Positions 1 to 40,039 of a stretch of DNA of 40,039 bases are shown in pieces; within the stretch, counting starts at the first letter, position 1; every line of letters starts with the position of its first letter. The translations under genes were made by a program, and so were the position numbers. Where the stretch lies: the IMG/VR virus record IMGVR_UViG_3300045988_148545. One strand, written 5' to 3'. The notes beneath the pieces are model-generated. The model was not told the DNA's origin. It was given only the letters and a program-made list of their open reading frames with translations, and ran no database searches. The DNA is from a virus.

Positions 1-99
1 ATGAAAGCTAAGTATCTATTATAATAAAGAAGAAACTAAGTATAAAAGGGGGCTAAAATAGTCCCCTTTATGTTAATGATATAGTTAAACTACGAGTTC
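1..99. repeat. Direct terminal repeat, copy 1 (exact duplicate of 39941..40039); overlap signature of a circular/circularly permuted genome
   Basis: Read directly: nt 1-99 are identical to the last 99 nt. Nt 1-24 (MKAKYLL*) are the 3' end of the endolysin ORF that starts at 39305. Confidence 0.97.
45..69. terminator. Hairpin between convergent endolysin (+) and integrase (-); possible bidirectional terminator
   Basis: AAAGGGGGC-N7-GTCCCCTTT forms a 9-bp stem with one G.T pair, flanked by A/T runs. It lies downstream of both stop codons. A duplicate copy sits at 39985..40009. Confidence 0.5.
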
Positions 100-122
100 G
101 TTGGTGCTTCGACTATATCATT
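75..122. other. Candidate attP for the serine integrase (48-bp imperfect inverted repeat)
   Basis: Perfect 11-bp arms AATGATATAGT (75-85) and ACTATATCATT (112-122). Further symmetric matches occur at pairs 88/109, 89/108, 92/105, 93/104 and 95/102. The symmetry centre lies between 98 and 99 (T98 C99, non-palindromic). The site overlaps the integrase stop codon. Confidence 0.45.
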
Positions 123-1704
123 CGCTAGAATCCCCTTTGTTCTTGGGCAGTTTCGGGAATAGCTCTAGCTTAAAATCATCTTGTCTTTGGTCTTTGAAGT
201 GTCCGTTGGCAGTTTTGGTATACACAACCTTATCCAGAATAGACTTCATTAAGTCATTTTTTAATTGAACATCATCAGAAGTTTTATAGATTTCCAAAAT
301 CTTTTTAGCCTTTGGTATAATCTCTTCCTGATGGCTAATTATTTCTCTCTCATTTGCTATTTCTTTATTAAGCTTAACAATTGCTTTCTCTGTAGAAGAA
401 ATGCTTTCAGAAACAGTTTTTTGTCGGTTCAGAAAAGTATCACTATCATATATTCCGTTTTCATAAGCTTCAAATACTTTTGTTAACTGGTTTTTGTATG
501 TTATTAATTGCTTTTGCTGTTCTTCCAAGAGTTTTGCCTTGGATTCCAAAACAGAAGTGTCATACTTGTTTGCTTCTTCCTTTATTTCGTATCCATCAAT
601 CCATTCCTTAATGGCAGTTAACAAAGCATCTTCAACAAGGTAAAAAGCAGAAGACACATTATGACATGTTTTTTCAGAGCATATTAGTGAAGCGGACTGA
701 CCTCTTTTTTGGTAAGGTCTTCTATACATACTTCTTCCACACATACCACATTTTATTACACCGGCAAGTGGATTGGTTATCGTTTTTGAAGGTCTTCTTG
801 GATTTCTGGATAATCTTTCCTGGGCCAAATTAAATGTGTCCTGAGATACAAGAGCAGGATGCTTTCCTTTGTATAGTCCATAGGATTCGTTACGTGTCCA
901 TTTATCGACGATAATTCCGTTTTCAACAACCTTTTTTCGCTTCTTTTTCCCAAAAACAATATATCCTAAATAATGTTCGTTTCTAAGCATGGTAGATATT
1001 GTTGGAATGGTCCAAACACCACCTAAGGGTTTAATTGAATATTCAGAATTTAACTTGTCTGCAATACGAGCTGTCCCTAAAAGTTCATAACTGCCATCTT
1101 CTTTTAGAATTCCCTTTGTATACCATTGAAAAATCAACTTTACAATTTCTGCTTCTCCCGGCTTAGGTTCCAGCCTATAACCTTTGGATTTTTTGTTCTT
1201 TACAATGGAATATCCAAATGGTGGTGTATGATGTATGTAATTACCTTCCTTGCAACTTGCTTCCATTCCAGCATGCAATCTTCTTTTAATAGTCTTATAT
1301 TCTCTTCTTGACATATACAAGCCAAATTCAAAATATTCCTGATCAAATTCATCTGTGGGATTAAATGTTTTCATCGGGGTAATGATTAAGGTATTGGAAT
1401 AAGTAAACGTCTTGGTAACTATTCCCTGATCAGAAGTATCACCACGGGCAAGACGCTCGATTTCCATAACAAGAACACCCTCCCATTTCCCATCAGATAC
1501 ATCATTGAGTAATCTCTGCATTTGAGGTCTTGCAGCAATGCTATCACCGGAAACAACCTCTTCATAGATTTCACCAATTGGCAAATTTTTCTTTTTTGCT
1601 AATTCAATTAATGTATCTCTATGACGTTTTAATGTTTCTCCAAAACCTTGCAGTTCTAACTCTCTATCAGCTCTGGATTTTCTTAAATAAATACAATAAG
1701 CCAT
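118..1704 (-). CDS. int: Large serine recombinase (phage integrase)
   Basis: 528 aa. N-terminal resolvase-type catalytic domain (YLRKSRAD with catalytic Ser, VMEIERLARGD), recombinase domain, Cys zinc ribbon (CGMCGRS...CSEKTCHN) and C-terminal coiled coil. SD AAAGGAG precedes the ATG. Confidence 0.95.
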   Translation of the reverse strand: MAYCIYLRKSRADRELELQGFGETLKRHRDTLIELAKKKNLPIGEIYEEVVSGDSIAARPQMQRLLNDVSDGKWEGVLVMEIERLARGDTSDQGIVTKTFTYSNTLIITPMKTFNPTDEFDQEYFEFGLYMSRREYKTIKRRLHAGMEASCKEGNYIHHTPPFGYSIVKNKKSKGYRLEPKPGEAEIVKLIFQWYTKGILKEDGSYELLGTARIADKLNSEYSIKPLGGVWTIPTISTMLRNEHYLGYIVFGKKKRKKVVENGIIVDKWTRNESYGLYKGKHPALVSQDTFNLAQERLSRNPRRPSKTITNPLAGVIKCGMCGRSMYRRPYQKRGQSASLICSEKTCHNVSSAFYLVEDALLTAIKEWIDGYEIKEEANKYDTSVLESKAKLLEEQQKQLITYKNQLTKVFEAYENGIYDSDTFLNRQKTVSESISSTEKAIVKLNKEIANEREIISHQEEIIPKAKKILEIYKTSDDVQLKNDLMKSILDKVVYTKTANGHFKDQRQDDFKLELFPKLPKNKGDSSE

Positions 1705-39103: not shown

Positions 39104-39305
39104 CAAGACAAAGAGATGGATTAAGGCAGCAGGTGTCAGAGCTGTAAAAACAATGGCACAGACAGCAGTATCATTAATTACTGTTGGAAATTTAATCACA
39201 GAGCTTGATTGGGTTTCAATAATTGGAATTTCTGCAACAGCAGGAGTGGTTAGTATATTAACAAGTGTTGCAGGATTGCCGGAAGTGGAAAGTGAGGAAG
39301 AATAA
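39096..39305 (+). CDS. Holin (two-TM class)
   Basis: 69 aa. RWIKAAGVRAVKTMAQTAVSLITVG...LDWVSIIGISATAGVVSILTSVAGLPE with a charged C-terminal tail. It lies immediately upstream of the endolysin. Confidence 0.8.
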   Translation: MSDKTKRWIKAAGVRAVKTMAQTAVSLITVGNLITELDWVSIIGISATAGVVSILTSVAGLPEVESEEE

Positions 39306-39964
39306 TGAAGAAAGAACACGATATTAGAATTGACAGAACCAAGTTACATCCTTGGCTTAATTACAAGTTAACTTTACTTTTAAAGCAGTGTGCAAAGAAA
39401 GGGATATACCTTATTATTACGCAGGGATTTAGAAGCAAGGCAGAGCAGGACGCTTTGTATGCTCAGGGCAGAACAAAGAAAGGAAACATTGTAACCAATG
39501 CAAAGGGAAGCGATTATTCTAGTCAGCATCAGTGGGGCATTGCTTTTGACATTGCTTTGAAGTATGATGTAGACGGAGACGGAAGAATCACTGATGACAC
39601 ATATAACAACAAAGGCATAAAAAAAGTTGCTAAAATTGCCAAATCTAAGAAAGTAGGTCTTGCCTGGGGTGGTGACTGGGTTAGCCCTGTAGATACTCCA
39701 CATTTTTATCTTGAAAAGTGGGGAGATACTCCGGCTAAGTTGAAAAGAACTTACGGAACGTTTGAAAAGTTCAAAAAGACTTGGACTAAGGAAGTTTTTG
39801 GAACAAAAAAAGGACTAAACATTTGGAACAAAACAAGAACAAAAATCCTGAAGAAAAAGCTTCCGAATAAAACAAAGGTCAATGTAATGTATGTTAAAAA
39901 AGGATATGCAAAAGTTGAGTATAATGGTGTAGTTGGATATATGAAAGCTAAGTATCTATTATAA
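39305..39964 (+). CDS. Endolysin: peptidase M15 (VanY/L-Ala-D-Glu peptidase-like) catalytic domain + C-terminal SH3-like wall-binding domain
   Basis: ITQGFRSKAEQDALYAQGRT, SQHQWGIAFDI and GGDWVSPVDTPHF are M15 zinc-peptidase motifs. The C-terminal segment KVNVMYVKKGYAKVEYNGVVGYMKAKYL is SH3-like. The last 24 nt lie in the terminal repeat. Confidence 0.9.
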   Translation: MKKEHDIRIDRTKLHPWLNYKLTLLLKQCAKKGIYLIITQGFRSKAEQDALYAQGRTKKGNIVTNAKGSDYSSQHQWGIAFDIALKYDVDGDGRITDDTYNNKGIKKVAKIAKSKKVGLAWGGDWVSPVDTPHFYLEKWGDTPAKLKRTYGTFEKFKKTWTKEVFGTKKGLNIWNKTRTKILKKKLPNKTKVNVMYVKKGYAKVEYNGVVGYMKAKYLL

Positions 39965-40039
39965 TAAAGAAGAAACTAAGTATAAAAGGGGGCTAAAATA
40001 GTCCCCTTTATGTTAATGATATAGTTAAACTACGAGTTC
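39941..40039. repeat. Direct terminal repeat, copy 2 (identical to 1..99)
   Basis: Read directly. Confidence 0.97.

Follow-up and report, generated by a model that had tools for sequence, protein, structure and literature searches.

The window analysed here, a stretch of viral DNA of 40,039 nucleotides, begins and ends with the same 99 nucleotides and carries near its start an integrase gene whose stop codon lies within an inverted repeat. This raises the question of whether the repeat is the attachment site of the phage and, if so, which host gene it enters and between which base pairs the strands are exchanged. The integrase gene (118–1704, minus strand) is the sole long open reading frame at the site and encodes a large serine integrase of 528 aa, with matches above cut-offs to the Pfam families Resolvase (PF00239), Recombinase (PF07508), and Zn_ribbon_recom (PF13408). 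The nearest solved structure is that of SPbeta SprA/YokA (phmmer, E = 1e-44, residues 6–498), and the structure of the LI integrase gave no match to the window integrase at E 1e-5 or better. The repeat is formed by two perfect inverted arms of 11 nt, AATGATATAGT (75–85) and ACTATATCATT (112–122), which are separated by a spacer of 26 nt; five additional symmetric pairs between the arms bring the symmetry to 16 of 24 pairs around an axis between T98 and C99. The integrase TGA (118–120) falls within the right arm. Positions 1–99 are identical to positions 39941–40039, and these 99 nt represent the longest terminal direct repeat of the window. The arms, the five inner pairs, the axis, the overlap with the stop codon and the terminal duplication had all been described in the original prediction and were confirmed. 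The prediction had also placed the centre of the repeat exactly on the overlap boundary; the duplication does end at position 99, but the boundary between 99 and 100 lies one base further right than the dyad axis.

On its own, the repeat at 75–122 is not beyond genome-wide chance and is notable only through its position beside the integrase gene. First-order Markov simulation of a 40-kb sequence gave an expectation of 0.8 for perfect inverted repeats of 11 nt whose arms are at most 40 nt apart, compared to three matches at two places observed in the window. Symmetry in 16 or more of 24 pairs was reached by 1.6 windows of 48 nt in the simulation versus 2 observed. The arm pair is not diagnostic either: the two 11-mers with a gap of 24–28 nt matched metagenome contigs ten times, all of them unrelated and in other contexts. 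As the repeat is statistically unremarkable, the case for an attP must rest on external evidence.

The exact integrase protein was looked up in a public assembly index, yielding 82 blocks, and the contigs that were read proved to be of two kinds. One of them (L019) runs past the integrase stop codon just as the circularised window does and represents the attP form. Three others with an identical integrase (L017, L018, and L020) continue beyond the stop codon into a 129-aa fragment of a manganese catalase, followed by the host genes for pyruvate formate-lyase and its activase. The opposite end was reached by an exact look-up of the endolysin (VanY/Peptidase_M15_4; 39305–39964, plus strand), the final phage gene before attP. 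In the three contigs obtained (L021, L022, and L023), a 68-aa fragment of a manganese catalase, encoded on the opposite strand, comes next after the lysin gene, and beyond it lie cotJB, cotJA and a gene for a phosphofructokinase. Based on their locus coordinates, L017 and L021 are parts of one 87.7-kb scaffold with the order cotJA-cotJB-cotJC (N-terminal part), a prophage of approximately 41.3 kb, and cotJC (C-terminal part). The interrupted gene is cotJC, which is located downstream of cotJA and cotJB (PF11007, PF12652, PF05067) and is split after codon 66. Hybrid junctions between phage and host DNA, the check named beforehand for an attP, were thus found in integrated contigs carrying either the identical integrase or the identical endolysin.

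In the following, the integrase-side junction (B-O-P′) is designated attL and the lysin-side junction (P-O-B′) attR. The lysin-side junction and the window are identical over bases 1–99, the last of which is C99, and separate at position 100, where the junction passes from ...ACGAGTTC into the host continuation TTCCACCGC (T100 onwards). The integrase-side junction corresponds to the window from A95 on and diverges at position 94; this other hybrid form consists of ...GATGCCCA joined to AGTTCGTTGG. The same homology breaks, 94/95 and 99/100, were present in six junction loci and were found again in a further contig (L039). Both junctions lie inside the 48-bp site (75–122), and the sequence common to attP, attB and the two junctions is a 5-bp core, AGTTC (95–99), the right edge of which coincides with the end of the terminal duplication. 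Joining the host flanks through this core in silico generated an uninterrupted 199-aa manganese-catalase/CotJC open reading frame, in which the insertion point is located at the codons GAA GAA CTT (Glu-Glu-Leu). Uninterrupted alleles also exist in the public assemblies. One of them (P0001, on L024) is 98% identical and reads ...GCCCAAGTTCTTCCACCGCAATATCG... / ...GCCCAAGTTCTTCCACCGC...; the intact attB contains AAGTTCTTCC, and the attB segment of 40–50 bp is CCATTTCGAGATGCCCAAGTTCTTCCACCGCAATATCGTTGATT. The B arm of a second uninterrupted allele (P0002, on L025–L027) is identical except for one SNP. The attP form, the attB form and both junction forms coexist in public assemblies, and together they define the site, the 5-bp core and the target gene. 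These findings support that the 48-bp repeat overlapping the integrase stop codon is the genuine attachment site, through which the 40-kb phage enters the spore-coat gene cotJC.

All contigs with an intact cotJC (L024–L027) are shorter than 2 kb, though the two protein clusters count 82 and 795 members. This may reflect fragmentation of the assembly graph in samples that mix lysogens and nonlysogens. The closest named CotJC homologues derive from Eubacterium species (~81% identity), and a 72%-identical integrase was found in a Lachnospiraceae MAG. Judging from these relatives of CotJC and of the integrase, the host is probably a Lachnospiraceae/Eubacterium-like bacterium of the gut.

The attP site was complete and internal in four other viral contigs (L029–L032) as well as in L019, with invariant arms and core. 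Variation was restricted to a few inner positions: the window carries C at position 106, whereas all five related IMG/VR contigs carry G, the commoner allele, which adds a 17th symmetric pair (17/24), and A88G and G104A were observed in L029 and L032, respectively. The integrated copies also vary. The prophage on the L017/L021 scaffold (scaffold_193 of ERZ28636127) comprises ~41.3 kb compared to 39.94 kb of unique sequence in the window, a tail-fibre-like gene encodes either 480 or 458 aa, and L020 contains an additional HicB-like open reading frame; on account of these differences in size and gene content, the phage population includes indel variants. Among GenBank phages, a DNA search with positions 1–2000 of the window returned only two short, unrelated matches, and the best integrase at the protein level is 46.5% identical. 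By these comparisons, no characterised GenBank phage appears to share this integration system.

For the exact point of exchange, the original prediction had proposed the dinucleotide T98-C99. The junction core 95–99 contains this dinucleotide, but the junctions alone allow four. The half-sites can be compared with those of the LI integrase, in which a 9-bp motif bound by the zinc-ribbon domain (ZD) occupies positions 16–24 of the attP half-sites and positions 11–19 of the attB half-sites (Rutherford et al., PMC3783163). Counting from 98/99, both half-site P on the lysin side (75–98) and half-site P′ on the integrase side (99–122) carry TATATCATT at 16–24, within the outer arms at positions 14–24 that presumably represent the ZD binding motifs. 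The B′ half-site carries AATATCGTT at 11–19, which is identical to the P′ motif in seven of nine positions and is the best of 26 offsets (background 0.37% per position). In the B half-site, the shifted motif matches in only 4/9 positions, which is not convincing. The assignment of the domain to this motif is putative, and the 5-bp inward shift is half reproduced, being seen in the B′ half-site alone.

Relatives of the integrase offer a further view of the register. Integrases with 72–76% identity (P0123, P0124, P0128, and that of L001) are all integrated in cotJC; AATGATATAGT spans the stop codon in these genes although the adjoining coding sequence differs, and cotJC is joined exactly 13 nt beyond the 11-mer in every one of them. 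Two contigs with the same integrase protein (L035 and L037) differ in 1 of 1590 nt within int and in 3 of 500 nt on the host side. The first of these host-side differences falls on the base equivalent to position 97 of the window and goes together with a host SNP further downstream; the same pair of bases at these two positions is found in L038, whose phage is a different one. This haplotype pattern would assign 97 to the host side and 100 to the phage side of the exchange, leaving 98 and 99, an indirect argument that draws on few SNPs in related phages rather than in the window phage itself. Based on the arm symmetry, the B′ motif, the 13-nt spacing in the relatives and the host haplotype at base 97, T98-C99 (TC on the plus strand and GA when read in the direction of int and cotJC) is probably the crossover dinucleotide, provided that the site is attP.

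An exchange at A95-G96, G96-T97 or T97-T98 within the same attP is unlikely in comparison. It would agree with the junction sequences, which delimit only 95–99, all four dinucleotides are nonpalindromic, and the B half-site supplies no independent register. Each of these alternatives is at odds, however, with the symmetry of the attP arms about 98/99, with a ZD-like motif in B′ that falls on 11–19 only when counted from 98/99, with the constant distance of 13 nt that separates the 11-mer from one and the same position of cotJC in the relatives, and with the 97-equivalent base that tracks the host haplotype. Another reading takes 75–122 as part of the integrase transcript, where it would form an RNA hairpin or act as a terminator at the 3′ end; the att function would then be confined to the short core, and the arms would be incidental. 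Minus-strand RNA of 70–127 does fold with −13.6 kcal/mol (z −3.5), but no T-tract follows and the terminator scan did not flag the site. Besides, the arms are ~40 kb apart in the prophage and can therefore not form a hairpin on the int mRNA of a lysogen, the integrase-side arm is kept in relatives with differing flanking sequence, and serine integrases require half-sites of ~24 bp (PMC3783163). We consider this reading highly improbable, and as a terminator the element was rejected on account of the scan, the missing T-tract and the separation of the arms by the whole prophage in lysogens.

The third point to be weighed is the end of the contig. An overlap of 99 nt is to be expected when a circular path is assembled by a de Bruijn assembler set to k = 99, and its length has no biological meaning. 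The contig end might thus be an arbitrary choice of the assembler, in which case its match with the att core would be due to chance and uninformative on a mixture of integrated and free forms; a circular path simply yields such an overlap of k-mers, and the breaks of four of the five related viral contigs are found at other places, both of which would fit this explanation. However, only ~2 of 39,940 start points bring a 99-mer into line with an edge of the core, L028 (38,381 nt), an independent contig, shares its starting base with the window, and public assemblies commonly contain integrated as well as free forms. An arbitrary end appears improbable for these reasons. The duplicated 99-mer is the last one common to the attP path and the P-O-B′ path, that is, a node with two exits, and its first copy (1–99) ends on the last base that attP shares with this junction. 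The view is well supported that the duplication arose as the assembler's overlap of k-mers on a circular path, which would begin at the node at which the two paths, one through attP and the other through the prophage junction, separate. A branch of this kind agrees with the original prediction, which had explained the contig end by a sample containing both integrated and free or circular forms. Strictly, such a branch marks the edge of the shared core and not the point of cleavage. As a lesson for the method, the end of the k-mer overlap of a "circular" contig can mark the boundary of an att core.

Taken as a whole, the comparisons argue for 75–122 being the attP of a temperate phage that integrates by its own large serine integrase (118–1704, minus strand) with attB in cotJC, a reading to which we assign a probability of about 0.93. 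According to the mechanism that we propose, an integrase dimer would bind the two 24-bp half-sites of attP, with the zinc-ribbon domains recognising the outer AATGATATAGT arms, and a second dimer would bind attB within cotJC at the codons for Glu-Glu-Leu. The synapsed tetramer would then cut all four strands at the central T98-C99, rotate and religate. The resulting prophage leaves cotJC as an N-terminal stub of 68 aa and a C-terminal remainder, and excision would restore the intact gene of 199 aa. The int reading frame itself stays intact after integration because its stop codon lies in P′.

Some relatives are inserted in the opposite orientation. Prophages with integrases 72% identical to that of the window (L001, 7560–7620; L033 and L034, 4080–4140) are integrated at the same Glu-Glu-Leu codons of cotJC, but the integrase-proximal arm of the L001/L033 type is joined to the N-terminal half of the gene. 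The orientation of the central dinucleotide relative to the arms is a known determinant of polarity in serine integrase systems. Since these relatives combine the opposite orientation with the same geometry of an 11-mer, 13 nt and 24-bp half-sites, the central dinucleotide of the L001/L033 type should be inverted relative to the arms; this inversion, as well as the core and the crossover of this type, is a prediction from the junction geometry. Exact scans of viral contigs and metagenome contigs with the P′ arm recovered no attP of the L001/L033 type.

In comparison with known systems, the sites described here form a canonical attP/attB pair of a large serine integrase, and the phage adds a well-documented case to a mechanism already known rather than a new type of system. 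Attachment sites (attP) of such integrases span about 40–50 bp with imperfect dyad symmetry around a nonpalindromic central dinucleotide, a pattern that the 48-bp site follows, and the enzymes by themselves catalyse attP × attB recombination in one direction, with a central cut staggered by 2 nt. The Listeria phage A118, which encodes the LI integrase, targets a gene other than cotJC. The architecture of its attP resembles that of the window, with 24-bp half-sites, a 9-bp outer ZD motif and a 2-bp central crossover (PMC3783163). In its attB the ZD motif is located 5 bp nearer to the centre (PMC3783163), an arrangement that B′ of the window phage follows, whereas B has no clear motif.

With respect to the target, several prophages and phage-derived elements with a serine recombinase are known to interrupt late sporulation genes, which become whole again once the element is excised, namely, skin, SPbeta in spsM, vfbin, vrin, gin, and yin (PMC4191935, PMC5499854, PMC5595907, PMC10747680). 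Like the window phage, SPbeta of Bacillus subtilis has its large serine integrase (SprA) at the prophage end, and it is a functional phage inside a late sporulation (spore envelope) gene that is rebuilt by precise excision (PMC4191935, PMC5499854). SprA is the closest solved structure to the window integrase but a distant one, as the E value of 1e-44 (phmmer) indicates; the targets (spsM versus cotJC) and the hosts (Bacillus subtilis versus gut Clostridia) differ as well. The elements skin in sigK, vfbin in spoVFB, vrin in spoVR, gin in gerE, and yin in yabG likewise split mother-cell sporulation genes by means of a serine recombinase. In elements of the skin and SPbeta type, excision is set off in the mother cell during sporulation by an RDF under the control of sigma-E or sigma-K. 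In contrast to degenerate intervening elements, the window element looks like a complete 40-kb phage, the circular attP form of which was recovered repeatedly. In Clostridioides difficile, also a clostridial host, prophage phi027 is found beside cotG, a manganese catalase gene of the CotJC family (PMC12122855, PMC11222575); phi027 is described as adjacent to cotG, whereas the window phage lies inside cotJC. As a recurrent target of intervening elements, cotJC has already been listed (Abe et al. 2013, as cited in bioRxiv 10.1101/2021.11.22.469490), and defined att sites for a cotJC-targeting integrase were not found in the literature searched.

To judge from the assemblies, cotJC of nonmodel Clostridia would be occupied by an active phage and not by degenerate elements alone; the association of prophages with sporulation genes thereby reaches further than Bacillus and C. 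difficile. The phage is uncultured yet widespread in public metagenome and sequencing-run assemblies. The integrase, the 48-bp attP, attB, both junctions and the 5-bp core make up a recombination set defined at the sequence level, and this set is a candidate orthogonal integration tool. A more far-reaching idea is that the phage, as a fully functional one, and its relatives act as sporulation-linked genetic switches in Lachnospiraceae/Eubacterium-like bacteria of the gut, where they would leave cotJC in the mother cell so that the spore-coat catalase is regained, and that the clade at the same time has naturally inverted its central dinucleotide, with sister phages entering the same Glu-Glu-Leu codons in either orientation. 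This combined proposal is tentative and, in our view, rather doubtful.

Several additional features surround the att locus. Beyond the C-terminal cotJC fragment, an AAA-type NTPase of the nSTAND3/DUF815 type is encoded in L017 (6407–7777), L018, L035 and L038, and in L035 and L038 (6401–6593) a gene of the ScmC family sits between this NTPase and cotJC. These genes look like defence-type genes beside an integration hotspot. On the phage side, a G+C-rich hairpin (AAAGGGGGCTA...TAGTCCCCTTT, 45–69) is located between the endolysin stop codon and attP. Its plus-strand RNA folds with −15.8 kcal/mol (z −4.0), it stays on the phage side of the lysin-side junction, and it is likely the terminator of the lysis operon. 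Runs of A/T border this hairpin on both sides, and it could terminate transcription from either direction.

A further inverted element is located at 1786–1824, between a SHOCT-domain gene and the integrase start, where a 15-nt sequence occurs in two inverted copies (GTGATACAATATGAC and GTGATATTGTATCAC). The original prediction had named this repeat as a place where prophage junctions might lie instead. Junctions at this position were absent, and as the region is contiguous and internal in all prophage copies, it was rejected as an alternative att site. The element folds into a strongly stable structure (−14.2 kcal/mol, z −5.3) and may represent an operator or another regulatory element for int. 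A promoter-like site on the plus strand (1767–1795) overlaps it, and terminator-like hairpins are present on its flanks.
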